Assembly: GCA_005809105.1 (NCBI GenBank)
Contig: SYLI01000021.1
Coordinates: 245 to 64,244, forward strand
DNA length: 64,000 nt
Source of the DNA: Verrucomicrobiales bacterium
GTDB lineage: Bacteria; Verrucomicrobiota; Verrucomicrobiia; Limisphaerales; UBA1100
Direction of reading: 5' to 3'
Made by a program: the position numbers and the translations under genes. The notes under the pieces are model-generated. The model saw only the letters and a list, made by a program, of their open reading frames with translations. It searched no databases and had not been told where the DNA came from. Below are positions 36,133 to 56,513 of the stretch, piece after piece. Every line of letters starts with the position of its first letter. Position 1 is the first letter of the stretch.

Positions 36133-36597
36133 ATGGCCGTGAAGGGTGCCAATGTGCCTGTTTACTACAATTCGCTCTACCGACATGGGGTGGATGCGAA
36201 GCGTCGTGTACAGATTCCGGCCAAATGGCGGCCTGCCGAGAAGGGTTTTGAATTTACGCTCATCGTCTGGCCCAAATCGGCTCATGGCACCTGCTTGCGA
36301 GTATTGCCGCCCGAACAGATGGCCAAGCTGATGCGCGACATTGACGCGATGAGTAATGACGATCCCAACAAGGTGGTGCTCAAGCGCTTCATCGGCAGCG
36401 AATCGATCCAGGTGGCGCTGGACAGTGCCGGCCGGATTTGCATCCCGGAGGCCATGTCGAAGGCGGCTGGGGTGGAAAATGAAGCCATGCTCGTGGGGTT
36501 GCTGGATCGCTTTGAGGTGTGGTCGCCGGTGAGGTACGAAATGGCATCGAAGGCCGACCGCGGAATGGCCGGCGCCGCCTTCAAGATGATGGAGTAA
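36133..36597 (+). CDS. mraZ: Transcriptional regulator MraZ
   Basis: Two SpoVT/AbrB-like halves with the DxxxR motif (GVDAKRRVQIPAKWR ... ALDSAGRICIPEAM); 154 aa; first gene of the dcw cluster. Confidence 0.9.
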   Translation: MAVKGANVPVYYNSLYRHGVDAKRRVQIPAKWRPAEKGFEFTLIVWPKSAHGTCLRVLPPEQMAKLMRDIDAMSNDDPNKVVLKRFIGSESIQVALDSAGRICIPEAMSKAAGVENEAMLVGLLDRFEVWSPVRYEMASKADRGMAGAAFKMME

Positions 36598-36808
36598 CGC
36601 GGTGCCGTGCGATGTGTGGCCACCATGGAATTTATCAAGACAGAGCCAAGGGGGTGCGCGGTGGCGGGGTCCTTCGGCCCGGCCATTGCGTTCTAGGTAA
36701 TGCCACAGAGGCCGGTTGGTTGATCAGGGTGCCTGCCCTGACAGCCAGCCGGCCTTGGGCAAACTTGCTTTTGGTTGCGCGAGCAGCCGGGGGAGGGGGC
36801 GAATTGTA

Positions 36809-39800
36809 GTGCGTGTATCAACGCAATTAAGGCGGTGGATACGGCGCGCGGCGGCGCTGGTGACCATGGCGCTGGCGTTGGGTGCGCCGCCGGCGCAGGC
36901 CTTCACCCTCATCGGGCCTCCCAACCCGGCCGCGTTTGATTGGGCCACCTACTTCACCTTTGCCGCCCTTCCGGCCGCACCCACGATGCCCGGCGGCGGC
37001 GCCGCGGCTCAGCAGGGTTCGCTTAACTTCGTGGACCCACTGGGTTGGCCGGTGCCGGTGAAGGAGTTCTACCGGTGGAATTTCCCCGAACTCACCTACG
37101 CCTTTGACAGCTCGTTCATCCGTTTCTTTGGCCACCATGGCATGCAGGCGGTGCACAATTCCTTCCGGGTGCTCAATGATTATTTTGAACCGGAGGACGC
37201 GGCGTACGATGGCGTCAGCACCCTGGATTTGCTGCGGCAGTACGACCAGCACTTTTCCACATGGCGCTTTAATCCCTCGGCCAACGTGGGAAACGTGACC
37301 GACATGCAGACCCTCGTCACGGGCCTGCTGGTCAATCACATGGGATTGGGCAATCCCCATCGCTACTGCTACGTCATTCGGGACATCATCAACTACCTCG
37401 CAAACGACACGACTTCGCGGGGCGATTTCCACGTCACCCTGCGAAACTACGACCCCTTCACCTACCACCCCTCGGCCGTCATCAATGGGGTCAATCACAG
37501 CTACTACATCTACTCCAATCCGGCCTACGTCGCTGGCGCGGGCGGCGCGCGCCCAGCCGTGTTCGATGCCGTTGAGTACGCCGTCAGCAGCGACAATGAG
37601 TTTAGCGCCGTTGCGGCCATCCGCGACGTGATCAACTTTGGCGGGTTGCCCTGGCCGCAGGTGGCCCCCACGGTGTTCCGCACGCCCGGCGTCTTCTTTA
37701 CCCCCGAAGACTCGCGCAACAAGCCTGCGATCAATACCACAAGCACCGTGCGGGACCAGCCCAGGCACACGTTGACCTACGACGATGCTGGCGGCCTGCG
37801 CTATCTCTATCGCACCAACAACGTGGTGTTCGAAAGACTCGATGCTTCGGTCACGCTGGTCACCCTGGCAAACATGAACCCCCCGCCGCGCACCACCGGC
37901 ATCCCCCCGGCCGTTCCTCCCAACTCTCCATTTAACACCCCGCAGGTGCGGACCATCACGGGGTTGGTGGCCGCCACCATCACACCCGCCAACAGCGCCA
38001 CGGGCAGTATCCGGCCGCAGGTGACCACCATCGTCCGCGACGGACTGCGCGGTGGCATCAACAAGATCCGATTCAACTACCTTCCCTATGATTCGCTGCT
38101 GGGGAGCGCCTATCACACCAACAACAGTGTCTGGACGGATGTCTTCATCACCAACGCGCTCCCGACGGACATCGTGCCCGCCAATCCCCCATTCTTTAGC
38201 CAGGTGGTGCAGCGCACCACCACCCGGCCCGATATCATCTTCATCGCGCAGGATCTCGGCGTGGCGGGCAACGTGCTGCCGGTGATCCAAATCCCGGACA
38301 CCGCCAACTGGGACAACTCCATGATTGCGAGCAACACCCAGCAGGGCGCCGCTGGACGGTACATGGGGCCGGGCGTGATCCGCCCTCCGGCTGCGACCTC
38401 GATTCAATACATCTTCACCACGCGCGCGCCTTTCCATCAGGTCGTCTGGTCGGGCCAGCAAGGCATCGAGGGGAACATGGTGACTCAATTTCAGTGGGGC
38501 TGGATCACCAACACCGGCCCCAATGACTTCATCCGCTTCCCCGAGGCGGACATCACGCAACCCGAAGGAGTCGTCGCGCCCAGCGGCGTGGTGCCGGAAA
38601 TGACGGCGTTGTCTGTGCTCGACGGCAGCCAGAACATCTTCACTTCGCCTTCCACCAGCTACAACATCGACCGCACCCTGGACACGCTCATCATCTACGG
38701 CCGACGCTTGGACACGGTGAGCCAGATTCGAATTCTGGACCACAACACCACCGTCGCCGGCAAGTATCGGGAACTGCAAGCGATTGACGCCCGGCGGCAC
38801 ATCATGAGCGACCAGCAAATCGTGCTCTCGCCCGGAACGCTCAATGAAAAAACCGTGTCGCCCTCCACAGGCACGTGGTACCGGCGGATCAGCCTTGTCA
38901 ACTCGCGAGGCGAAAGCGTCTCGGAGCTGCTCTACAAGATTCGGGATGGCCGCCCGCTCATCCATGCCACCCAGTACGACGGCTTGCCGCTCAATACCAC
39001 CAAGAGCCTCGTCATCACGGGCAGCGGGTTCAGGACGGCGAACGGCAACGTGAACCAGATCTGGTTCTTCGATGACAACAACGGCACCAACAACGCCCTG
39101 GATCCGGACACGGGCACGGGCGTCTTTCCAATCCCCATCGCCATATTGGACATCAATGCCACCAGCGCGTACGTCGCGCCCAGCGGTGTGGGAGCGAGGA
39201 ACACCGACATCGTCATCACCGACAACTCCATCTATCTGCCTCCCCACATGATCAGCGACGGCCTCTTCATTCCTGGCGGGCTCCCCGCCACGTTTGGCTC
39301 CTTCGGGTTTGGCACCTTGGGACAGGGAAACAACATGGCGCGTAGCGACGGCAACAGCACCGACGTCACCGTCCTGCTCTTTACCAAGCACATTCGGGTG
39401 GCCATCAACAACAGCCTTACCGGTCAGCCCAACGCCAACGTCATCATCAGTCCGGCGCGGCCCACCGTTCAGGGGTTCACGCAAATTGGCGTGGGGGGTG
39501 AACGCAACTCGACCGCGCCGGGAGTGGGCGGCGAGCCCACCTTCCCCATCATCACCGATGTGTTTACCAACGCCACCTTGCCGGGTGCGCCCGTGACGGT
39601 TGCCGATGCCAACCGGACGTGGCTGCGCGGCACCGATGCAGACACGCTCACCATCCGCGGCCGTGGGCTGGACTTGGCCGTCGCCATCGAATTTGTGGAC
39701 GGGCTGGGCAATTCCATCCAATCCACCGATGCCGTCGGCCTGCCGCCGCAGCCCGTCTCGCTGCGGCAAAACGCCAACCCCAGCACGCTGGCGACGGGGG

Positions 39801-40000
39801 TCACCATCGTGCCGCAGGCCGTCGTGGGGTCACGCGACGCCTACGAAATCCGCATCAGTCCGGTGACCTTCGGCATGAATGGCAACGCGCTCTTTGACTC
39901 GGCCGCCAGCACCAATCCCAACCAGCTGCGCCGGGTGGTGATCCGCACGCCTTTCGGGACGGCCATCGCGCCTGTCAGCACGTACCTGATGATTCAGTAG
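36809..40000 (+). CDS. Large secreted protein (~1063 aa from a GTG start) of unknown function; C-terminal half with at least 3 Ig-like (IPT/TIG-like) segments
   Basis: One continuous ORF (track 36716..40000). Proposed GTG start at 36809 is preceded by GGGAGGGGG. Signal peptide RVSTQLRRWIRRAAALVTMALALGAPPAQA|F. Asn/Thr/Pro/Ile-rich composition. IPT-like strings TLIIYGRRLDTVSQIRILD, SLVITGSGFRTANGNVNQIWFFD, TLTIRGRGLDLAVAIEFVD. Ends 12 nt before rsmH. Confidence 0.75.
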   Translation: MRVSTQLRRWIRRAAALVTMALALGAPPAQAFTLIGPPNPAAFDWATYFTFAALPAAPTMPGGGAAAQQGSLNFVDPLGWPVPVKEFYRWNFPELTYAFDSSFIRFFGHHGMQAVHNSFRVLNDYFEPEDAAYDGVSTLDLLRQYDQHFSTWRFNPSANVGNVTDMQTLVTGLLVNHMGLGNPHRYCYVIRDIINYLANDTTSRGDFHVTLRNYDPFTYHPSAVINGVNHSYYIYSNPAYVAGAGGARPAVFDAVEYAVSSDNEFSAVAAIRDVINFGGLPWPQVAPTVFRTPGVFFTPEDSRNKPAINTTSTVRDQPRHTLTYDDAGGLRYLYRTNNVVFERLDASVTLVTLANMNPPPRTTGIPPAVPPNSPFNTPQVRTITGLVAATITPANSATGSIRPQVTTIVRDGLRGGINKIRFNYLPYDSLLGSAYHTNNSVWTDVFITNALPTDIVPANPPFFSQVVQRTTTRPDIIFIAQDLGVAGNVLPVIQIPDTANWDNSMIASNTQQGAAGRYMGPGVIRPPAATSIQYIFTTRAPFHQVVWSGQQGIEGNMVTQFQWGWITNTGPNDFIRFPEADITQPEGVVAPSGVVPEMTALSVLDGSQNIFTSPSTSYNIDRTLDTLIIYGRRLDTVSQIRILDHNTTVAGKYRELQAIDARRHIMSDQQIVLSPGTLNEKTVSPSTGTWYRRISLVNSRGESVSELLYKIRDGRPLIHATQYDGLPLNTTKSLVITGSGFRTANGNVNQIWFFDDNNGTNNALDPDTGTGVFPIPIAILDINATSAYVAPSGVGARNTDIVITDNSIYLPPHMISDGLFIPGGLPATFGSFGFGTLGQGNNMARSDGNSTDVTVLLFTKHIRVAINNSLTGQPNANVIISPARPTVQGFTQIGVGGERNSTAPGVGGEPTFPIITDVFTNATLPGAPVTVADANRTWLRGTDADTLTIRGRGLDLAVAIEFVDGLGNSIQSTDAVGLPPQPVSLRQNANPSTLATGVTIVPQAVVGSRDAYEIRISPVTFGMNGNALFDSAASTNPNQLRRVVIRTPFGTAIAPVSTYLMIQ

Positions 40001-40012
40001 TGCAGCCCATGA

Positions 40013-40912
40013 TTGCCCGTGTCCAACTTTGCGCACAAACCGGTCCTGCTCGCCGAGGTCCTCGCTACGTTGGGCCCGAGCGAGGGGGGGCGGATGGTGG
40101 ATGGCACGCTTGGCGGGGCGGGCCACGCCGAAGCCATTTTACAGGCCAGCCAATCAGGCTGGCTTGGGGGGTGCGACCGGGACGGGGCGGCGATTGGCGC
40201 TGCCCTGTCCCGACTCAAACCTTATGCCCACCGATGCGACTTGCGCCGAGGCACGTTTGCCGAGCTGCCCGAATGGATCGAGCCGGGAAGCGTGGATGGC
40301 GTGTTGTTGGACTTGGGAGTGAGTTCGCCGCAGTTGGATCACCCCGAACGCGGTTTTAGTTTTCAACATGACGGCCCGTTGGACATGAGAATGGATGATC
40401 GCCAAAACCTGACGGCGGCCGAGGTGGTGAACACAATGGACGAGCCGCGGCTCTCATCGCTGTTTTGGGAATTGGGCGAGGAACGCGAGTCGCGGAAACT
40501 GGCGCGGGGAATCGTGCGCGAGCGCCAGTCGCAACACTTCGCGACTACCGGAGAGCTAGCCAGCCTCATCGAGCGCCTCTCGCCGCGCCGGGGGCGCCGG
40601 CTGCATCCGGCCACGCGCGTATTTCAGGCGCTGCGTATGTATGTGAACGACGAAGTGGGACTGCTTGAGCGCGGCCTGCCCGCGGCTGCGTCTCTCTTGC
40701 GCCCTGGTGGCCGACTGGCGGTGATCACCTTTCATTCGCTGGAAGGCCGGATTGTGAAAGCATTTGGAGACGCCGCGAGCAAGGCGTCGCCTCCGACCTT
40801 GGGCTGGGTGCGCCGCAAGGTGATTCAACCGGGGGACGCCGAACTGGATGAGAATCCGCGGGCCCGAAGCGCTTGCTTGCGAGTGCTTCAAAAGAGCCAG
40901 GGGGAACCATGA
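40013..40912 (+). CDS. rsmH: 16S rRNA (cytosine1402-N4)-methyltransferase
   Basis: HKPVLLAEVL...VDGTLGGAGHAEAIL...LLDLGVSSPQLD...GFSF..DGPLDMRM...ITFHSLE. TTG (40013) or GTG (40019) start. Confidence 0.92.
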   Translation: MPVSNFAHKPVLLAEVLATLGPSEGGRMVDGTLGGAGHAEAILQASQSGWLGGCDRDGAAIGAALSRLKPYAHRCDLRRGTFAELPEWIEPGSVDGVLLDLGVSSPQLDHPERGFSFQHDGPLDMRMDDRQNLTAAEVVNTMDEPRLSSLFWELGEERESRKLARGIVRERQSQHFATTGELASLIERLSPRRGRRLHPATRVFQALRMYVNDEVGLLERGLPAAASLLRPGGRLAVITFHSLEGRIVKAFGDAASKASPPTLGWVRRKVIQPGDAELDENPRARSACLRVLQKSQGEP

Positions 40913-43044
40913 CGCCAAGAGAACTTGTCAACCATGGCCGTAGAGGTGGCCCCCTGCTGGCATTGATCCCGATGGTGGTGGGCGCGGCATTGAGTCCCAT
41001 GGGGCAGGAACACCCACTCATTGGCGACATCGCCGGGCATCAGCAGCGGCCGCAAATGGTGCTGGGAGCCAAGGGCGGTCTCGTCGTCTGGCAGCATGAA
41101 TCGGAGAGCAGCAAGGGCGAACATGTGATGGTGCAGGCGCTCAACGCCGATGGCGTGGGCACGGGAATTCCCATCCGGATGAGCACGGCCACCGACGGGA
41201 GGATGGAACGCCATCCGCGCGGGGCCCTGCTGCCTGATGGCAACGCGGTGGTGGTCTGGGAAGCCGGCACGCGCGCCAATCGCGAAATCTACCTAAGGTT
41301 GCTGGCGCCTAACTTCACCTTTCTCACGCCTGAGGTGAGGGTGAACACCCGACAGGCCGGCAATCAACACATGCCGGCGCTGGCGGTGTTAAACGACGGC
41401 ACCATCGTGGTGCTGTGGCGCAGCGACCTTGCCGATGGCAGCCACGGCGGCGTCATGGGTCAGCTCCTCAATGCTCAGGCAGCCAAGCTGGGAGGGGAGT
41501 TCACCGTGCACCAGAGCGCGCAGTCCAATCAGTCCCAGCCCGCGGTGGCGCCCTTGAAGAATGGCGGATTCGTGGCCGCATGGATTTCGGAAACGGTGAA
41601 CGGCCAGACGCCGGAAGGCGCACCCAACATCAAGGGCAACGTGTTCGGGCGCGTGTTTAACGCACAGGGAGCTCCCGCACCGGACGAAAAGCGACTCAAC
41701 GGGGTGGAGGGCCTTTGCTCCGCTCCCACCCTCGCCGCGATGGAGGAGGGGTTCCTTCTCGCGTGGGTTCAGGTGGATGAAAAGACGATGAGCAATCAGG
41801 AGGACATCTGGGTGAGACGATTTGGTGCCGATGGCACGGCTACCGGCGACGGAGCACGTCACAACAAACTTACCGTCGGCCGACAAAGCGCGCCGACGCT
41901 ATCGGTGAACGGGGCCGATGCGCTGGTGGCATGGCAATGCGAGGTGCGTCAGACCGCCAGCTACGAGGTGCATGGCAGGCTCTTGTCCGGGGGCGCGGAA
42001 TTCCGAATCAACAACCGCGTGCTTTACCACCAACGGCAACCCACCGCAGCGGTTGATGCCGCGGGAAACCATCATGTCGCGTGGGTGGATTCCGTGAGGG
42101 ATCGGCACGCCATCTTGTCGGCACGCAGTTATAGTGGCGCCGCGGACAAGGATGTGACGGCCCTTGCCGATGTCAGTTATGAGGGTGAAGGTGCCGACGG
42201 CGTCATGCTGGCCGGACAGGTTGTGAAGCAAAAGGATCCTGGAGCAGAGGAAATCTCGGCGCGTGCAGCCGTCCAGAGAGAAGCGGCGGAAGGCGCGGCC
42301 GATCAGCAGGCAGCCCAAGCTGCCGCCATCGCACAGGCTGCCGCTGGACGCGCGGCCACGGGTATTCTGATGGGCGTTGCACAGGGCGCGACCGGGGGCA
42401 CGGCAGAGGCGTCGAAATCGCCACTCGCTGGTGCTGTGGCCGGCCAGCGGTTGCCGGGCGACAGTGCGGCACAAACGGCGCTCGCCAGTGCTGCGCGTAA
42501 GGGAGCTGCGATTACCGGAGGCATCGCGCGTCTCAACACTTCACGATCCGCGACGGCGTCGAGCACCGCTTCAAACCTGCGGAATATCGTGGCCCAATCG
42601 CGCGCCAGCGCGGTGGCATTGTCGCCTGCCGTGACGAGGTCGGGATATGTCGATCCCAAGGCGGGATCCGCCACGCCCTCGCGCATTCCCGCGTCTACCA
42701 AAGCAACAACGAGCCGGGCTGAGCCCGCCCGTTCGCAAGCCCGCACCAGTGCGCCCGGTGCGAGCGCGGCGGCAAGGTTAAGCACCGCCCGGGCGGCGGC
42801 CGCCACGAGCTCAGGTGCAGCGCGCGCCGTGCCGGCCGTGCAGGCGTCGCTCGTGGGCTCAGGCAAAAATCTCCAGCTGCAGTGGAACACCGTTTCCGGA
42901 GGCAAGTATCAGGTGCAAGGGTCGCCCGATCAGCGGACTTGGCAAAACGTCGGGGCGGTGCGCACGGGCGCTGGAGCGGCTGATTCGGTGCCGGTGGATG
43001 CAGCGGGCAATCTGAGATTCTTCCGGGTGTCCAAGAACAACTAA
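40909..43044 (+). CDS. Exported 711-aa protein: seven tandem ~50-55-aa beta-propeller-like repeats, ~200-aa Ala/Ser-rich linker, small C-terminal beta-sandwich-like domain (…LQLQWNTVSGGKYQVQ…LRFFRV)
   Basis: The ATG at 40909 overlaps the rsmH TGA (ATGA). N-terminal RRGGPLLALIPMVVGAAL signal/anchor. Repeat consensus Q..P.vA.L.dG..vV.W ... i.GrlF.a.G...g.EF.VN seen 7 times (aa ~43-410). The stop at 43044 lies 1 nt before the ftsL-like GTG. Confidence 0.8.
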   Translation: MTPRELVNHGRRGGPLLALIPMVVGAALSPMGQEHPLIGDIAGHQQRPQMVLGAKGGLVVWQHESESSKGEHVMVQALNADGVGTGIPIRMSTATDGRMERHPRGALLPDGNAVVVWEAGTRANREIYLRLLAPNFTFLTPEVRVNTRQAGNQHMPALAVLNDGTIVVLWRSDLADGSHGGVMGQLLNAQAAKLGGEFTVHQSAQSNQSQPAVAPLKNGGFVAAWISETVNGQTPEGAPNIKGNVFGRVFNAQGAPAPDEKRLNGVEGLCSAPTLAAMEEGFLLAWVQVDEKTMSNQEDIWVRRFGADGTATGDGARHNKLTVGRQSAPTLSVNGADALVAWQCEVRQTASYEVHGRLLSGGAEFRINNRVLYHQRQPTAAVDAAGNHHVAWVDSVRDRHAILSARSYSGAADKDVTALADVSYEGEGADGVMLAGQVVKQKDPGAEEISARAAVQREAAEGAADQQAAQAAAIAQAAAGRAATGILMGVAQGATGGTAEASKSPLAGAVAGQRLPGDSAAQTALASAARKGAAITGGIARLNTSRSATASSTASNLRNIVAQSRASAVALSPAVTRSGYVDPKAGSATPSRIPASTKATTSRAEPARSQARTSAPGASAAARLSTARAAAATSSGAARAVPAVQASLVGSGKNLQLQWNTVSGGKYQVQGSPDQRTWQNVGAVRTGAGAADSVPVDAAGNLRFFRVSKNN

Positions 43045-43045
43045 C

Positions 43046-43390
43046 GTGAACCAGAAAAAAAACTCATCCCTGCGATTTGTTCCGGCGGTCAAGGCCGCAT
43101 TAATTTGCCTCGTCACCTGTGCGCTGGGCCTAGGCTATGTGTGGCAGAAACAACAAATCTCAAAACTGGGCGAGGAGATGAAGAAGCGTGAGGAACGCCT
43201 GGGCACATTGCGGCAGGAGAACAAGCGTTTCAATGACATCCTTGCCCAGCTCAAGTCTCCTCAAACGCTGGACCAGATGGCTCGTGAATGGCGACTCAAT
43301 CTGGAGGCACCCAAGCCTCAACAAGTCGTGGTGGCAACGGAGCCGGCGTCGGAAAATCCCGCCAGGACTGTCCACGCGGCCCGCCGTTGA
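43046..43390 (+). CDS. ftsL: FtsL-like cell division protein (single TM helix + coiled coil)
   Basis: 114 aa; TM segment AVKAALICLVTCALGLGYVW followed by a heptad-like segment QQISKLGEEMKKREERLGTLRQENKRFNDILAQL; canonical position before ftsI; GTG start. Confidence 0.7.
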   Translation: MNQKKNSSLRFVPAVKAALICLVTCALGLGYVWQKQQISKLGEEMKKREERLGTLRQENKRFNDILAQLKSPQTLDQMAREWRLNLEAPKPQQVVVATEPASENPARTVHAARR

Positions 43391-45276
43391 TGTCTCGTCC
43401 TCCCATCGCGCGTTCGGATTCACTGCCTCCCCGGGCTGGAAGGGGCTGGCTTCTCAGTTTCGCATGCTTGCTCCTCGCCTGCTACGGCGCACTGGCCTAC
43501 CGGCTGGTGGATCTTCAGATCCTCCGCCATGCGCAGTTGCGCGAGGTGGCCAGCGACCACACCACGCGCACCGTTATTTCTGAGCCGCGACGTGGCGACA
43601 TCTTCGACTCCCATGGCAATAAACTCGCCACGAGCGTGTTTGTAAAAACGGTGTGCGCCGACCCCTCTCTGTTGGGGCGGCATCACGCTGAGGTGGCCCG
43701 CGCACTGGCACCTGTGCTCAAGCTTGATTCTCTCGAGCTTGAAGCCCGCCTCAAGCCGGCATTGCGACAGAGCGCGTCGGGCCAGCTTCGTACCAATCGC
43801 TATGTGGTGCTGCGACGGAAGGTGAAGCCGGAGATGTGGGAAGCCGTGAAGAAGACTTTGGCGACCCTGCCGCTTTCCGGTGAGCCAGCGCGGCCGGCCG
43901 GGGAACTCCGGCAATACTTTGCCGCGCTTCGCAGGCACGCCATCTTTGCCGATCCTGTGGAGGATCAGGAGCGGATTTACCCATCAGGGGCGCTAGCGGC
44001 GCATGTTCTGGGTTTTGTGGCTGGAGACGAACATGCGGGCAGGGAAGGGGTCGAGGCGGCGCTTGATACGCACCTCACGGGCGCGCGCGGGTGGCGCGTC
44101 ATCCAGACCGATGCGCGCAAGCGCGAGAAGGTGGAGCATCGGGTGCAGGACATTCCCGCGCGCAATGGTCTCAATGTCGTGTTGACGCTCGACGCAGGCG
44201 TGCAGAACATCGCCGAGACGGAGCTGGCCGCCGCTGTTAAAAAACATCAACCTCAGGGCGCGACCGTCATCGTGATGCGTCCAGCCACAGGCGACATCTT
44301 GGCGATGGTCAATGCGCCGTCCTTCGATCCCAATCGCCCGGGTGATTTTGACGCTGCGCAACGCCGCAATCGTGCCGTCACCGACTTGTCTGAACCCGGA
44401 TCCACCTTCAAGATCGTTCCCATCGCCGCCGCTCTCAATCAGGGCAAGACCACGCTGGCCAACCAGTTTCATTGCGGCGACGGGCAGTTTCCCTACGCCG
44501 GCAGAGTGCTGCACGATCATCATCCCTACGGGCTGCTCAGCGTCGAGGGCATCATCACCAAGTCCTCGAACATTGGAGCGGCCAAGGTGGGGATGCTGCT
44601 GGGTGCACCCCTGCTGCACCAGTACATCCACGACTTTGGCTTCGCGCGCAAATCGGGCATCCAGCTTCCCGGCGAGGTCGCCGGCGTGGTGCATCCTTTG
44701 GCGAGGTGGAATGCGCTGTCCATCACGCGCCTGCCCATGGGGCATGAGATGAGCGCCACGCCGTTGCAGATGGTGATGATGATGGGCGCCATCGCCAACC
44801 GCGGCCAGCTGATGCAGCCGCGGCTGGTGGATCATCTGGCCAACGACGAGGGTCAGGCGGTGGTGCGCTTTGGCGCCAAAGTGGTGAGGCAGGTGATCAA
44901 ACCCGAGACGGCCTTACAGATGACGCGCGCGTTAAAGACGGTCGTCGGGCCAGAGGGCACGGCCAAGGGAGCGCGGCTGCCCTACCACTCGGTTGCGGGC
45001 AAGACGGGCACGGCCCAGAAGCCAGGCCCTGGCGGGTACCTGCCCGGCAAGTATTACTCGTCCTTCATCGGATTTTTTCCTGCCGACTCGCCTGAAGTGT
45101 GTATCTTGGTCTCCATGGATGAGCCGCAGGGGGAATACTACGGAGGCGTCGTTGCCGCGCCGGTGTTTAAGGCCATCGGCGAGCGCGTGGCTGCGTATCT
45201 GGCCATCAAGCCCGACTTGAATCCGGACGCCAGCCTAGTTTCAGCCGACGAGAAAGCCCGCGCGCGCCGTCCCTGA
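43390..45276 (+). CDS. ftsI: Peptidoglycan D,D-transpeptidase FtsI (class B PBP)
   Basis: Start trimmed to the ATG at 43390 (TGATG overlap with the ftsL stop). TM anchor WLLSFACLLLACYGALAY. Motifs STFK (GSTFKIV), SSN (KSSNIG), KTGT (GKTGTAQ). Confidence 0.92.
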   Translation: MSRPPIARSDSLPPRAGRGWLLSFACLLLACYGALAYRLVDLQILRHAQLREVASDHTTRTVISEPRRGDIFDSHGNKLATSVFVKTVCADPSLLGRHHAEVARALAPVLKLDSLELEARLKPALRQSASGQLRTNRYVVLRRKVKPEMWEAVKKTLATLPLSGEPARPAGELRQYFAALRRHAIFADPVEDQERIYPSGALAAHVLGFVAGDEHAGREGVEAALDTHLTGARGWRVIQTDARKREKVEHRVQDIPARNGLNVVLTLDAGVQNIAETELAAAVKKHQPQGATVIVMRPATGDILAMVNAPSFDPNRPGDFDAAQRRNRAVTDLSEPGSTFKIVPIAAALNQGKTTLANQFHCGDGQFPYAGRVLHDHHPYGLLSVEGIITKSSNIGAAKVGMLLGAPLLHQYIHDFGFARKSGIQLPGEVAGVVHPLARWNALSITRLPMGHEMSATPLQMVMMMGAIANRGQLMQPRLVDHLANDEGQAVVRFGAKVVRQVIKPETALQMTRALKTVVGPEGTAKGARLPYHSVAGKTGTAQKPGPGGYLPGKYYSSFIGFFPADSPEVCILVSMDEPQGEYYGGVVAAPVFKAIGERVAAYLAIKPDLNPDASLVSADEKARARRP

Positions 45277-50917: not shown

Positions 50918-51820
50918 ATGCAACACCCCAACCCCAACATTCCGCCCGGGATGGCTCTGGAGAAAGCCAGCCGCAGTCGTTCCAAGATGCGTGTCGCCGT
51001 CGTGCTCATCGTGCTGCTGCACGTGGCGCTCTTCAGCGGAATCCTCTTCAACGCATGCAGCCAGAAGAGCGATGAAGCCAAGAACGCGCTCCCGCAGAAA
51101 ATCAACGTTGCCGAAAACAACCAGCCGCCTGCTTTGCCGCCCCCTGATGCGGGAGGCGGTGCAGTAGTGCCGCTGGCCGGCGGTGCCGGCGGTGGAATCG
51201 CGACTGGTGGCAGTCTGCCCTTGCCGCTGCCTGGCGCCGGATCGGCCGCCACAACTCTGCCTCCCGCTGGTGCAGCCACGGGAGGTGCCACGGGAGGATT
51301 GACTTCGCTTCCCACGCCTGGCGCGAACACACCCTCAGGCACACCTGCAGCTTCTGGCTCCACCTCCACGCCGCCTGTGGCCACGGCCGCCGAGCACACC
51401 ATTCAGTCAGGTGACAACTTCTACGTTCTCGCCAAGAAATATGGAGTCGGCTTTAAGCAGATCCAGGACGCCAATCCCAACGTGGCGCCCACCAAATTGC
51501 AGATTGGCCAGAAGGTTCAAATCCCAGCAGCCCTCCCCAAACCGGCCTCAACGGGCACAGGAGGCACAGGGTCTGCCGCGAGTTCCGGCGCATCGGCCGC
51601 CTCGGATGGTTATGTCGTGAAGAAAGGCGACAACCTAAGCCTCATCGCAAAGCGCTTTGGAACCACCGTGAAGGCGTTGCGTCAGGCCAACAACCTGCAG
51701 TCCGAGCGGCTCATGCCAGAGCAAAAGTTGAAACTTCCGGCGGGCGCAAAGTTTTCAACGCCCTCGGGGACACCTGCCACGCCCAGTGCCTCCGGCCCGG
51801 CCACTCCAGGTGCCGAATAG
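50918..51820 (+). CDS. Membrane-anchored protein with Pro/Gly/Ala-rich linker and two LysM peptidoglycan-binding domains
   Basis: AAGGAGA RBS before the ATG at 50918. TM helix VAVVLIVLLHVALFSGILF. LysM 1: HTIQSGDNFYVLAKKYGVGFKQIQDANPNVAPTKLQIGQKVQIP. LysM 2: YVVKKGDNLSLIAKRFGTTVKALRQANNLQSERLMPEQKLKLP. Confidence 0.85.
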   Translation: MQHPNPNIPPGMALEKASRSRSKMRVAVVLIVLLHVALFSGILFNACSQKSDEAKNALPQKINVAENNQPPALPPPDAGGGAVVPLAGGAGGGIATGGSLPLPLPGAGSAATTLPPAGAATGGATGGLTSLPTPGANTPSGTPAASGSTSTPPVATAAEHTIQSGDNFYVLAKKYGVGFKQIQDANPNVAPTKLQIGQKVQIPAALPKPASTGTGGTGSAASSGASAASDGYVVKKGDNLSLIAKRFGTTVKALRQANNLQSERLMPEQKLKLPAGAKFSTPSGTPATPSASGPATPGAE

Positions 51821-53044: not shown

Positions 53045-54204
53045 TGCCCACCTCACACGCCGCGCCGCGCGTTCACATTGTCTGTGGTGGCACCGGGGGA
53101 CACTTTTTCCCGGGCGTGGCGGTGGCGCGCGAGTTGCAACGGGCGGGCGTCATCGTGACCCTGTTGATTTCAGAAAAGCGAGTCGACCAGCAAGCCGCCC
53201 AGTCACAGGGCGACCTCGAAATATGCGAACTGCCTGCGGTGTCGTGGCAGACACGCGCGCCATGGAGGTTTCTCAATGGGTTGATTCGTTCTCTGAGGAA
53301 GGTGCGAACTCTTCAACTCCACCAACGGCCCGATGCCGTGCTTGCGATGGGCGGATTTACTAGCGTCGCGCCGGTGCTAATGGCGCGGGCGGCCGGGGTT
53401 CCCGTTTTCCTCCACGAATCCAACGCCATTCCCGGCCGCGCCAACCGCTGGCTGGCGCCGTTGGCGCATCAAGTGTTCGTGGGATTTGAAAGCGCACGCC
53501 ATCGATTTCTGCACACGCACGTTGAGGTCACCGGCACGCCCGTCCGCGACGCTTTTTTTACCGCGACGTGCGAAGCCAGCCGCGTGGGGCTAGGGCTGGA
53601 CGCCGGGCGTCCCGTGCTCCTCATCATGGGAGGCAGCCAAGGCGCGCGAGCCATCAACCACCGGGCACTGGCGGTTCTGCCGGCGCTTTTGAAAGCATGG
53701 CCCTCGTTGCAGTTCCTGCACCTGTGCGGCGGAGGCGATGGCGAGGAGGCGCGGGTGCGCGCGGCCTATGAGGCGCAGGGAGCCACGGCACGTGTGCATG
53801 AGTTTCACGCCGACATGCCCTTGGTGTTGGCTGCGGCGGACGTGGCGGTTGGCAGGGCAGGGGCCTCATCGCTGGCGGAACTGGCGGCCGCGCGATTGCC
53901 CTCGGTGCTCATTGCTTTACCCACGGCCGCGGACGACCACCAGCGGTACAACGCGCGAGAATTTGAAAGACGCGGTGCCGCGCGGATGGTTGAACAATCG
54001 GCAGGTCCAGAGGAGCTGGCCCAAGCGCTGTGCCAGTTGCTTGCGAACCGGGCGCCCGTCCGTGCAGCCCTCGCGGGCATGGCGGCACCTCGAGCCGCGG
54101 CACAGGTCGCCGCACACATTCTGTCCTGCGTTCGGCCGCAGCGTTCGGCCAACGCGCCACAAACATGGAACGACCCGACACTTTGGTCCCCCATTACGGC
54201 CTGA
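53041..54204 (+). CDS. murG: UDP-N-acetylglucosamine--N-acetylmuramyl-(pentapeptide) pyrophosphoryl-undecaprenol GlcNAc transferase
   Basis: IVCGGTGGHFFPGVAVARE; GRAGASSLAELAA; ATGA overlap with the ftsW stop. Confidence 0.92.
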   Translation: MMPTSHAAPRVHIVCGGTGGHFFPGVAVARELQRAGVIVTLLISEKRVDQQAAQSQGDLEICELPAVSWQTRAPWRFLNGLIRSLRKVRTLQLHQRPDAVLAMGGFTSVAPVLMARAAGVPVFLHESNAIPGRANRWLAPLAHQVFVGFESARHRFLHTHVEVTGTPVRDAFFTATCEASRVGLGLDAGRPVLLIMGGSQGARAINHRALAVLPALLKAWPSLQFLHLCGGGDGEEARVRAAYEAQGATARVHEFHADMPLVLAAADVAVGRAGASSLAELAAARLPSVLIALPTAADDHQRYNAREFERRGAARMVEQSAGPEELAQALCQLLANRAPVRAALAGMAAPRAAAQVAAHILSCVRPQRSANAPQTWNDPTLWSPITA

Positions 54205-56513
54205 CGACCACCGACCGCGGAGAGCTCGCGCGTTGGATCGAAACGACCGACGCGCCCGTGTACCTGCTGGGCGCGGGAGGCTGCGGCATGAGCGCCTTGG
54301 GACATCTGCTGCTTGACCATGGTCTATGCGTGTGTGGTTCCGACGCGCGTTCGACGGCTGCCCTACGACAGCTCTCCGGGCGCGGCGCGGATTTGCGAGA
54401 AGGACACGAGGCTGCGCATCTGCTGGCACATCGCCCTGGGTTGGTGGTGTATTCTTCGGCCATCCGGCTCGACAATCCCGTGATGATCCAAGCGCAACGC
54501 GCCGGCTTGCGGCTAGCCCGCCGCGCGACCGTGCTCGCCGCACTAATGGAAGGACGCCGTGGTGTGTGTGTGGCCGGCATGCACGGGAAAACCACGACGA
54601 CTGGACTGCTGGCGCACGCCTTACGCGAACTGGGTGCGGATCCTGGATACGCCGTCGGTGGGTTGGTGGCCGAGTGGGATCGCCCGGCGCGCCTGCGCGG
54701 CGGGGATCGTTTCATGGTGGTGGAAGCGGACGAAAGCGACGGCACCCTTCTCGAATTTCGCCCGGAACAGGCACTCATCCTCAATGTGGACGAGGAACAT
54801 CTGGATTACTTCGCCGACCTTGCGGCCGTGTGCCGGGAATTTGAAACCTTCGCTTCGCAGGTGCGCGGGCCGCTCTTCTATTGCGCCGATGATGCGCGTT
54901 TGGTGGCGATGTTCGCGAACCGGCAGGGTGCGATCTCATTTGGCTTCAACTTGGCCGCCCACTATCGCGTAGAGCCGCGCCCGCCTGCCACTGACGGTGC
55001 GGCGCCCTTCGACTTGTGGCACCAGGGCGTATTGCTGGCGACGATCACCCTTAAGCTCGCAGGAGAGCAGAACATGTCTAATGCGGCCGGCGTGGCCGCC
55101 TTCCTGCATCAGAACGGATTTGACGCGCAGCAGATTTCAGCGGCCTTGGGCTCCTTTGGAGGCGCGATGCGCCGCCAGCAAACCCTCTATCGAAGCGCCC
55201 AACTCACCGTGATGGATGACTACGCTCATCATCCTCGCGAGATCGAGGCCACGCTTAAAGCCATGCGCAGCCGGCATCACGGCCGCCTGCTGGTGGCCTT
55301 CCAGCCCCATCGCTACACGCGCACCCAGCATCTTCTCAAGGACTTTGCGCGCTGCTTTTCCGGCGCTGACGCCGTGTGGATCACCGAGGTCTATGCCGCC
55401 AGCGAGCCCGTGATTCCCGAGGTCAACGGCCGGCGCTTGGCCGAGGCCGTGTCCGCGCAGGGGGTTCCGTCTGTCTTTGTGGCGACGCTGGCCCAGTTGC
55501 GCGAGCAAGTGTCCATCGCCATGCGGCCGGGCGACATGGTACTGTTTCTCGGGGCGGGAGACATCACCCAAGCGGCGCACCAACTGGCGATGCAAGCGGC
55601 CTTGAATGAAAGCAGCGTGGCGGCGGCGCTGCGCGGACTACTCTCGCCTGCCTCCGCCCTGCGCGAGCACGAGCCCATGTCCCGGCGCACCACGCTGCAC
55701 GTGGGGGGAGCGGCCGACGTGTTTGTGGAACCGGCATCCGAGGCAGACCTGGCGGCCGCGCTGGCCTGTTGCAATGCCCGCGCCGTGCCGGTGTTCCTGC
55801 TGGGGCGCGGTTCCAATCTGCTGGTGAAAGACGGCGGCATTCGCGGCGTGGTGATCCACCTTGGGGCGCCGGTGTTTTCCGGAATGGATGTGTGCGGCGA
55901 GAGGATTTACTGCGGTGCCGGTGTGCGACTCAAGCATCTGGCCCACGAAGCGCGCAAATGCGGTCTGGCTGGGTTTGAATTTCTGGAAGGCATCCCCGGC
56001 AACCTAGGCGGCGCACTGAGGATGAATGCGGGCGCCATGGGCTCTGAGATATTTGGCTTGGTGGAATCCGTCCGCGTGATGAGCTTGTCCGGAGAGATCG
56101 AGGATCTGACTCGCGATCAGTTGGGAGCGCAATACCGACACTGCCCCGCGCTGAAAGAAAAGGTGGCGCTGGGCGCCGTGCTCCGGGGCAGGGTGGACTC
56201 CCCCGGCGCTGTGGCCGAACGCATGCGATCATTCAGCCAGAAGCGCCACGATTCCCAGCCGGGAGCCAAGAGCGCCGGTTGCATTTTCAAAAACCCTCTT
56301 GAATGTCCCGCCGGCCGGCTTGTGGACGAACTGGGGCTCAAAGGCACGCGTGTGGGGGGGGCCGCCGTGTCCGAGGTGCATGGCAATTTCATCGTCAACG
56401 AGGGGAATGCCACGGCGCAGAATGTGCTCGACCTCATTGCGCTCATTCAGGCAAGTGCCCGTGCCGAGCGCCACATCGAGCTTTGCACCGAAGTGCAGAT
56501 CATCGGTGAGTAG
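54165..56513 (+). CDS. murC: Bifunctional MurC-MurB fusion: UDP-N-acetylmuramate--L-alanine ligase (N-terminal ~470 aa) + UDP-N-acetylenolpyruvoylglucosamine reductase (C-terminal ~300 aa)
   Basis: Start trimmed to the ATG at 54165 (40-nt overlap with murG; later TTG/CTG starts are possible). MurC: GAGGCGMSALG, GMHGKTTTTG, DDYAHHP. MurB from ~nt 55600: RRTTLHVGGAADVFVEP, GRGSNLLV, GIPGNLGGALRMNAGA, SAGCIFKNP. No stop codon between the two halves. Confidence 0.9.
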   Translation: MERPDTLVPHYGLTTTDRGELARWIETTDAPVYLLGAGGCGMSALGHLLLDHGLCVCGSDARSTAALRQLSGRGADLREGHEAAHLLAHRPGLVVYSSAIRLDNPVMIQAQRAGLRLARRATVLAALMEGRRGVCVAGMHGKTTTTGLLAHALRELGADPGYAVGGLVAEWDRPARLRGGDRFMVVEADESDGTLLEFRPEQALILNVDEEHLDYFADLAAVCREFETFASQVRGPLFYCADDARLVAMFANRQGAISFGFNLAAHYRVEPRPPATDGAAPFDLWHQGVLLATITLKLAGEQNMSNAAGVAAFLHQNGFDAQQISAALGSFGGAMRRQQTLYRSAQLTVMDDYAHHPREIEATLKAMRSRHHGRLLVAFQPHRYTRTQHLLKDFARCFSGADAVWITEVYAASEPVIPEVNGRRLAEAVSAQGVPSVFVATLAQLREQVSIAMRPGDMVLFLGAGDITQAAHQLAMQAALNESSVAAALRGLLSPASALREHEPMSRRTTLHVGGAADVFVEPASEADLAAALACCNARAVPVFLLGRGSNLLVKDGGIRGVVIHLGAPVFSGMDVCGERIYCGAGVRLKHLAHEARKCGLAGFEFLEGIPGNLGGALRMNAGAMGSEIFGLVESVRVMSLSGEIEDLTRDQLGAQYRHCPALKEKVALGAVLRGRVDSPGAVAERMRSFSQKRHDSQPGAKSAGCIFKNPLECPAGRLVDELGLKGTRVGGAAVSEVHGNFIVNEGNATAQNVLDLIALIQASARAERHIELCTEVQIIGE

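Follow-up and report, generated by a model that had tools for sequence, protein, structure and literature searches.

Why a gene for a large exported protein should lie between rsmH and ftsL is the question raised by a 64,000-nucleotide stretch of DNA (the window) from a Verrucomicrobiales bacterium (GenBank assembly GCA_005809105.1, contig SYLI01000021.1, positions 245 to 64,244 of the forward strand). The segment mraZ-rsmH-ftsL-ftsI, at the start of the cluster of division and cell-wall (dcw) genes, has one of the best conserved gene orders of bacteria. In the window this segment carried two additional genes, gene T between rsmH and ftsL and gene U between mraZ and rsmH. A preliminary description of the window, made from the sequence alone, had pointed to T as an exported propeller-like protein and implied a new divisome protein. 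Our analysis favored, with moderate confidence, a different answer, in which T is a Sec-exported binding protein of the cell surface or envelope that was co-opted into expression from the dcw operon and is not a core division protein. From the N-terminus to the C-terminus, T consisted of a putative signal peptide, a predicted seven-bladed propeller, a linker, and a C-terminal module:

40909-43044, plus strand: gene T, 711-residue exported protein, with the open reading frame and its junctions read from the sequence
40909-40989, plus strand: putative signal peptide of the Sec type, spanning about residues 1-27 and cleaved near GAA/LS
40999-42153, plus strand: predicted seven-bladed β-propeller domain, about residues 31-415, defined by repeat statistics, tryptophans, AlphaFold2, and Foldseek
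42181-42837, plus strand: Ala/Ser/Thr/Arg-rich, net-basic linker, residues 425-643, with an AlphaFold2 predicted local distance difference test (pLDDT) score below 50
42838-43041, plus strand: C-terminal β module of about 65-68 residues, ending R-[FY]-[FY]-R-V, specific to the T family

Unit-wise alignment of the seven repeat units of T gave a mean pairwise local alignment score of 36.8, compared with 20.4 ± 0.86 for shuffled units (z = 18.9), and none of the 300 shuffles reached the observed score. This kind of statistic was required, as self-BLAST of the N-terminal domain did not detect the internal repeats. In an alignment of 16 family members, seven tryptophans (W61, W117, W170, W225, W286, W342, and W392) were invariant, spaced 50-61 residues apart and each preceded by a conserved Q-x-x-P. 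The AlphaFold2 model, built from the 16-sequence alignment, was all-β between about residues 30 and 415, with block pLDDT values mostly of 80-95, and DSSP analysis of the model revealed 7 groups of 4 strands, a blade count taken from the strand pattern of the prediction and not from inspected coordinates. A conserved N-terminal strand probably closes blade 7, like the clasp of the propeller ring, and the N-terminal domain as a whole is predicted to be a closed seven-bladed β-propeller. The preliminary description had proposed seven tandem repeats forming such a propeller, followed by an Ala/Ser/Thr/Arg-rich stretch and a C-terminal domain of about 65 residues ending in LRFFRV; all of the repeat strings that it quoted lay where it had put them, and the low-complexity stretch and the C-terminal domain also agreed with its account.

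A Foldseek search of the PDB returned the seven-bladed enzymes of families PL42, GH145, and PL24 as the best matches (target-normalised template modeling (TM) scores of 0.60-0.66), and the six-bladed sialidases were ranked after them. Over the individual entries of the three families (7esl for PL42; 5mum, 5mvh, and 5muk for GH145; 6byt for PL24), which have the overall fold in common with T, the target-normalised TM score ranged from 0.45 to 0.66. The identity of T to all structural matches was only 8-13%, and the agreement is therefore one of fold and not of family membership. Searches of Pfam, NCBIfam, and the PDB sequences with whole T or its separate domains, in single-sequence and in profile form, returned nothing significant except for one marginal match of the C-terminal module. 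The NCBIfam model NF053835 (PDIAV motif-containing lipoprotein) scored 17.3 bits (E=0.0024) against T, below its curated cut-off of 90 bits. Profile searches, which the preliminary description had proposed as a check, placed T in no family; a homology of its repeats to giant extracellular proteins was instead seen with phmmer, as described below.

T was not unique to this genome. Intact orthologues of 650-822 residues were found at 25-61% identity, and both the propeller and the C-terminal module were conserved across them, which supports T as a real, conserved gene. In all aligned orthologues, the N-terminus contained a hydrophobic core followed by small residues at positions -3 and -1, and it would be a cleavable Sec-type signal peptide. 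The arginine pair of the signal or anchor first described was not conserved in orthologues, and on this ground both a Tat signal and an anchor were rejected; a lipoprotein was rejected as the signal peptide had no lipobox cysteine. The low-complexity stretch (residues 445-645) contained 32% Ala, 12% Ser, 8% Thr, and 8% Arg, and the low confidence of the linker in the AlphaFold2 model (residues 425-641) was consistent with disorder. The linker sequence was only 5-20% identical in most orthologues and 46% in the closest one (P0002); its composition and positive charge were kept, with net charges of +4 to +37 in the T-type orthologues.

The linker was followed by a small β domain (residues 646-710, pLDDT 70-83), and the protein ended in LRFFRVSKNN. 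In the module alignment, residues W16, G21, Y24, W35, and R63 were invariant. A hidden Markov model (HMM) of the module was scanned against the window and 43 loci (verrucomicrobial sequence of about 0.66 Mb) and matched only the extreme C-terminus of T-family proteins, with one exception. The exception was a 176-residue protein of locus L041, which was made up of a signal peptide and the module repeated twice in tandem; the module is therefore an autonomous unit. The gene of this module-only protein (14305-14835 of L041) lay between T and ftsL. With these matches, the earlier statement on the C-terminal pattern, that secreted proteins of the Planctomycetes-Verrucomicrobia-Chlamydiae (PVC) group commonly have it, was left unconfirmed. 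A wide homology search with the module alignment was uninformative, as its 228 candidates were mostly fragments. In profile searches, the module resembled the discoidin/CBM32 half-domain 4zxe marginally (E=7e-4) and F5_F8_type_C below threshold, and these similarities are only hints.

The blades of T belonged to a large population. An exhaustive phmmer search with residues 39-424 retrieved 24,285 cluster representatives at E <= 1e-3, of which 3,460 also passed a threshold of E <= 1e-30. Many of these relatives were proteins of 2,000-7,900 residues with 10-37 matched stretches and E-values that reached 0, and their repeat (Q-x-x-P ... G-G-F-V-V-x-W) was directly homologous to the blades of T. 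No Pfam or NCBIfam model covered the repeat in T, and in the sampled relatives Pfam found no model for it either, only modules of export and anchoring (RTX repeats, the Por_Secre_tail of the type IX secretion system (T9SS), dockerin, cadherin, and DUF4214). One giant relative also gave a sub-threshold match to the endo-glycanase EglC model. The blade type of T is thus a very common and uncurated module of extracellular proteins. Unlike the giant RTX, T9SS, and dockerin proteins, T contained a single closed set of seven blades and a Sec signal peptide, and it had its own linker and a T-specific C-terminal module in place of RTX, T9SS, dockerin, and cadherin modules. In the Pfam search of T for export modules of the type I secretion system and T9SS, neither HemolysinCabind nor Por_Secre_tail was found.

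The surroundings of T in the window were read as follows:

36133-36597, plus strand: mraZ, first gene of the cluster, recognized by the Pfam MraZ model on orthologous genes
36716-40000, plus strand: gene U, exported protein of about 1050-1094 residues, between mraZ and rsmH
40013-40912, plus strand: rsmH (mraW), 16S rRNA methyltransferase, recognized by Pfam and NCBIfam profile matches
40909-40912, plus strand: ATGA, the start of T overlapping the stop of rsmH, an arrangement of translational coupling
43042-43048, plus strand: stop codon TAA of T, 1-nt spacer, and GTG of the FtsL-like gene
43046-43390, plus strand: FtsL-like bitopic protein of 114 residues, from its position and weak matches to DivIC/FtsL models
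43390-45276, plus strand: ftsI, PBP3-type transpeptidase, recognized by Pfam Transpeptidase and PBP_dimer

The identity of rsmH was certain (Pfam Methyltransf_5, E=6e-96; TIGR00006, E=2e-89), and that of ftsI was likewise unambiguous. The 114-residue gene gave only sub-threshold matches (DivIC, E=1e-4; FtsL models, E of about 2e-3 to 5e-3), and an orthologue in another locus also matched DivIC weakly; from position, size, and these matches it is weakly assigned to FtsL. T lay inside the dcw operon, in the same orientation as its neighbours and tightly spaced. As the preliminary description had read them, the ATG of T at 40909 overlapped the stop codon of rsmH (TGA at 40910-40912), and the TAA of T (43042-43044) was separated by one nucleotide from the GTG start at 43046. 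The stop codon of ftsL in turn overlapped the probable start of ftsI in the sequence TGATG (43388-43392). The ATG at 43390 is the likely start of ftsI, and a longer open reading frame from 43288 probably does not mark the real start because the alignments of orthologues began at its residues 45-52. Between mraZ and ftsI, no promoter-like or terminator-like site was found above chance. This chain, in which start and stop codons overlap or abut, implies that the genes are transcribed together and that their translation is coupled, and since the GTG of FtsL lies one base past the stop of T, FtsL synthesis probably needs ribosomes that have finished T. The compact junctions were not confined to the window: the spacing between rsmH and T was -7 to +41 nt in orthologous loci, and the spacing of +1 or +2 nt between T and ftsL was also found in loci L001 and L010.

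Gene U, which the preliminary description had overlooked, was the constant partner of T. In every T locus with enough flanking sequence, a homologue of U either adjoined T or was separated from it by rsmH only. The true start of U in the window lay somewhere between 36716 and about 36866. U carried a signal peptide and had no match in Pfam or NCBIfam, and a U profile gave 0 matches among the PDB sequences. Its C-terminal half was modeled by AlphaFold2, with Foldseek matches, as a chain of immunoglobulin (Ig)/IPT/FN3-like sandwich domains, and no structural match was obtained for the N-terminal half (about 500 residues). The sequence FTLIG at the N-terminus of mature U was considered as a prepilin site and rejected because the residue at -1 was Ala and no Glu was present at +5; a β strand was predicted in place of a hydrophobic helix, which further ruled out a prepilin. 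The association between T and U was not reciprocal, as many long-form U paralogues stood alone without T. In five such loci (L063, L070, L077, L078, and L089) the long-form U was located between a ZnuA/MacB-like transporter and surface-glycan genes (a DegT aminotransferase, a CapD/PglF-like dehydratase, and a Bac_transf sugar transferase), which constituted a third conserved context of the U family. Tandem arrays of T paralogues with long-form U (about 1350-1550 residues), for example in the order exo-T-U-T-T-U, were found in L019, L020, L043, and L007, and indicate that in some marine Verrucomicrobiota the pair has been amplified locally.

A genome survey with the T alignment revealed where this pair is found in relatives. 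It returned 30 species-level loci, nearly all from Verrucomicrobiota, with the closest in a metagenome-assembled genome of Pedosphaera sp. (62% identity to T). In 26 of the 30 loci, T and U lay directly downstream of an Amuc_1100-type cluster in the order PilM-Amuc_1100-p264-p514-secretin-(5'-3' exonuclease)-T-U, all on the same strand; one locus was of the dcw type, and the other three were arrays or short contigs. In an independent scan with the U alignment, 16 of 80 loci were of the dcw type. The order mraZ-U-rsmH-T-ftsL-ftsI was kept in about eight or nine distinct, related lineages whose FtsI was 55-82% identical to that of the window, so that the placement of T first noticed here was not peculiar to one genome. 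With the arrays included, members of the T family were found in at least three unrelated contexts. The Amuc_1100-type cluster (PilM/Amuc_1101, Amuc_1100, Amuc_1099, and PilQ/Amuc_1098) encodes outer-membrane and surface proteins; it is the type IV pilus-like cluster known from Akkermansia, where PilQ (Amuc_1098) is the most abundant outer-membrane protein (PMC4960237; PMC10688800). Amuc_1096 of Akkermansia muciniphila lies in a region (Amuc_1082-1096) that was reported to be induced together with iron-uptake clusters, and nothing on T or U was gained from the Akkermansia muciniphila literature. Unlike the genes of the Amuc_1100-type pilus context, T of the window lay in the dcw cluster, and T had no pilin features.

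Several further genes accompanied the pair in the secretin-linked loci. In most of them, a 5'-3' exonuclease of about 290 residues (5_3_exonuc_N / 5_3_exonuc) was located between the PilQ-type secretin and T (L006, L009, L012-L014, L016-L018, L020-L022, L024-L034, and L036-L040), which mirrored the position of rsmH between U and T in the dcw form. In T5-type secretin-linked loci (L005, L006, and L022-L040), T and U were followed by a third protein of about 1000 residues (p1000/p1002) without a Pfam match, and in L005 and L006 this was followed by very large DUF5122/Calx-beta proteins. No homologue of p1000/p1002 was present in the window.

In a neighbour-joining tree of T propellers, calculated without support values, the dcw copies formed essentially one clade among secretin-linked and arrayed copies; a deep second clade was entirely secretin-linked, and both deep clades included the secretin context. 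The dcw-type U proteins were monophyletic (100/100 bootstraps) and fell into two clades, one with T in the cluster (81/100) and one lacking it (100/100). In the latter, all three examined loci had the order mraZ-U-rsmH-ftsL-ftsI with rsmH adjoining ftsL, and one of these was foretold from the U tree and then confirmed. The dcw-embedded form was confined to one Pedosphaera-like clade. From the monophyly of the dcw-type U and its division into two clades, U entered the cluster once, and this was followed by either a single gain or a single loss of T; because T and U occupy two different junctions, at least two rearrangements are needed. The site between rsmH and ftsL was occupied by T in one clade and free of it in the sister clade, and elsewhere T was mostly secretin-linked. 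T also diverged faster than the division genes beside it, being 58-61% identical to its closest orthologue compared with 76-82% for rsmH, ftsL, and ftsI, which is expected for a surface protein.

These observations weakened the divisome protein implied in the preliminary description, since the commonest and deepest context of the family was downstream of the PilM/Amuc_1100/secretin cluster, the sister clade kept U without T, and the repeats were homologous to those of RTX, T9SS, and dockerin proteins. The architecture of T, its Ig-chain partner, the extracellular leaning of its repeat family, and the dominant synteny with a secretin cluster point instead to a binding protein of the surface or envelope, with U as its working partner. 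We infer the export route, the surface location, the cooperation of T with U, the link with a secretin apparatus, and the regulatory consequence in the following sequence. After cleavage of the signal peptide, the N-terminal strand would close the propeller, which would be the ligand-binding part. A basic, disordered, Ala/Ser/Thr-rich “tether” of about 200 residues would join the propeller to the C-terminal module, and this module would most likely dock T on a partner or on the outer membrane, where T would act together with U, the large exported Ig-chain protein. Their genes form a conserved verrucomicrobial pair, which would have had its ancestral home directly downstream of the PilM...PilQ secretin cluster of the Amuc_1100 type. 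A Pedosphaera-like lineage would have captured U at the mraZ-rsmH junction and T at the rsmH-ftsL junction. T would then be transcribed with the dcw operon and translated in the chain rsmH to T to ftsL to ftsI, with translation of FtsL dependent on ribosomes that finish T. The likely consequence would be a surface component made in step with envelope growth and division.

Five points weighed against a co-opted surface protein. The best structural neighbours of the T model were carbohydrate-active enzymes and not adhesins. The need for at least two insertion points, mraZ|rsmH and rsmH|ftsL, hints that functionally linked genes were recruited to this operon more than once. Across lineages with FtsI of only about 55-62% identity, T has kept its dcw placement and its tight coupling, which suggests selection for the location instead of simple tolerance. 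The 26:1 ratio of secretin-linked to dcw-type loci overstates the rarity of the latter, since the T survey used one peptide pattern that missed window-like T. Finally, a search of the 64-kb window found neither pil nor secretin genes, and the secretin link therefore rests on relatives.

Two known kinds of propeller protein were compared with T. PilY1/PilC proteins are propeller-containing adhesins of type IV pili, and TolB is the periplasmic propeller of the division-linked Tol-Pal system. Like PilY1/PilC, T is a putative exported protein with a roughly seven-bladed propeller, and in most relatives its gene was associated with type IV pilus genes; unlike PilY1/PilC, its propeller was N-terminal and not C-terminal, it had no vWA domain, and the neighbours of its family were PilM-PilQ genes and not minor pilins. 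Membership of T in PilY1/PilC was rejected, as no Pfam match was obtained and none of these proteins was among the top 50 structural matches; the N-terminal 440 residues gave no Pfam match at all at E <= 10. Like TolB, T would be an exported propeller protein, in this lineage encoded with division genes, and its function may be tied to envelope constriction; unlike TolB, it had seven blades instead of six, another domain order, and a long disordered linker, and the context of its family was mostly outside division clusters. TolB membership was also rejected, as neither TolB_N nor PD40 matched T in Pfam or NCBIfam. The fold, domain logic, and operon of T are all of known kinds.

The TolB comparison bears on the view that T, with U, became a genuine division or septal-envelope accessory in this lineage, a propeller scaffold in the periplasm or tethered to the outer membrane that would coordinate outer-membrane and peptidoglycan events with FtsLBQ/FtsI in a TolB-/CpoB-like manner, with its coupling to ftsL ensuring stoichiometric co-production. 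The position of T between rsmH and ftsL, with its ATGA overlap on one side and its 1-nt spacer on the other, the overlap of the ftsL stop with the ftsI start, and the long persistence of the arrangement in about eight or nine lineages all speak for this view, as do the recruitment of both members of the pair to separate sites of one operon and the third extra envelope gene of the cluster, a LysM protein. The type IVa pilus machinery of P. aeruginosa is reported to be installed at future division sites (PMC5285504), which provides a conceptual bridge only. However, a division accessory would be at odds with most members of the T family lying outside dcw clusters, with a sister clade that retained U in the cluster and lacked T between rsmH and ftsL, and with a repeat family that is otherwise extracellular; moreover, T was not similar to TolB, PD40, or any divisome family, and its divergence exceeded that of the adjacent division genes. 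We consider this view unlikely. A bolder version, in which T and U are lineage-specific envelope components that were recruited stepwise into the mraZ-ftsI segment and couple the assembly of a secretin or pilus-like surface apparatus to division, physically or in time, with T as a TolB-like scaffold at the septum or new pole and FtsL synthesis mechanically coupled to the translation of T, is distinctly improbable.

The structural matches raised the further idea that T is a carbohydrate-active enzyme or a lectin whose propeller cleaves or binds a surface glycan, an exopolysaccharide, or the glycan strands of peptidoglycan. The top Foldseek matches, with TM scores of up to 0.66, were enzymes (the PL42 rhamnose-glucuronate lyase 7esl, GH145 entries 5mum, 5mvh, and 5muk, the ulvan lyase of PL24, sialidases, and GH93) together with the lectin CV39L. 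The marginal likeness of the C-terminal module to a CBM32/discoidin chitosan-binding module, the sub-threshold EglC match of the giant relative, and the glycan-synthesis genes beside U paralogues would fit the same idea. Any seven-bladed propeller would nevertheless retrieve the same PDB entries, and the likeness of T to PL42, GH145, and PL24, at the low identity given above and without a family-level sequence match, was one of fold only. No CAZy-related model of Pfam or NCBIfam matched T, and the invariant residues were mostly blade-periodic, so that their look is structural and gives no hint of one active site. An enzyme or lectin is very unlikely. It is also possible to deny the dcw position any functional meaning and to regard T and U as passengers that landed at permissive sites between the genes of a strongly expressed operon and are kept by inertia. 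The occurrence of the family in at least three unrelated contexts and the absence of T from a sister clade whose cluster is otherwise unchanged would be natural for passengers, but insertions into the mraZ-ftsI segment should be costly, the junctions were compact or overlapping in several lineages, and two linked genes occupied two sites of one operon, with a dcw-type U that was monophyletic and long-lived. The chance that the position is without meaning appears slim. A surface or envelope binding protein under the control of the dcw operon remains the preferred reading of T.

Other features of the window concerned the remainder of the cluster. A 300-residue protein with two LysM domains was encoded between murD and ftsW (50918-51820, plus strand), the third non-canonical gene of the dcw cluster. 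A murC-murB fusion (54030-56513, plus strand) of 827 residues as listed contained Mur ligase domains, FAD_binding_4, and MurB_C; its listed start overlapped murG, and the true start is probably later. A murC-murB fusion was also reported for Verrucomicrobium spinosum (PMC12283558). Long antisense open reading frames were present opposite U, T, and ftsI, for example 36827-39769 on the minus strand (980 residues, opposite U), and these are an unsupported, usual by-product of coding sequence with about 63% G+C.

In a literature search, no description was found of T, of U, or of genes inserted between rsmH and ftsL in Verrucomicrobiota, and neither T nor U was described as part of the Amuc_1100-type pilus cluster. 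No source named the two families, and no published description of the dcw variant was found. Our results define a previously unnamed verrucomicrobial pair, the propeller protein T and the Ig-chain protein U, which is syntenic with the Amuc_1100/PilQ cluster, itself of wide interest because of Akkermansia. They also draw attention to an abundant propeller repeat that is still without a curated family model despite its 24,285 cluster representatives. Although the divisome reading was weakened, T is a clean exception, and a conserved one, to a textbook gene order, and two large genes whose products are exported, long kept at two junctions of a conserved segment, constitute a natural experiment on how the dcw cluster tolerates or exploits cargo. 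If the pair links the biogenesis of a surface apparatus with division, this would add something new to the cell biology of the PVC group; if there is no link with division, the T-U pair would still be a useful target for annotation.

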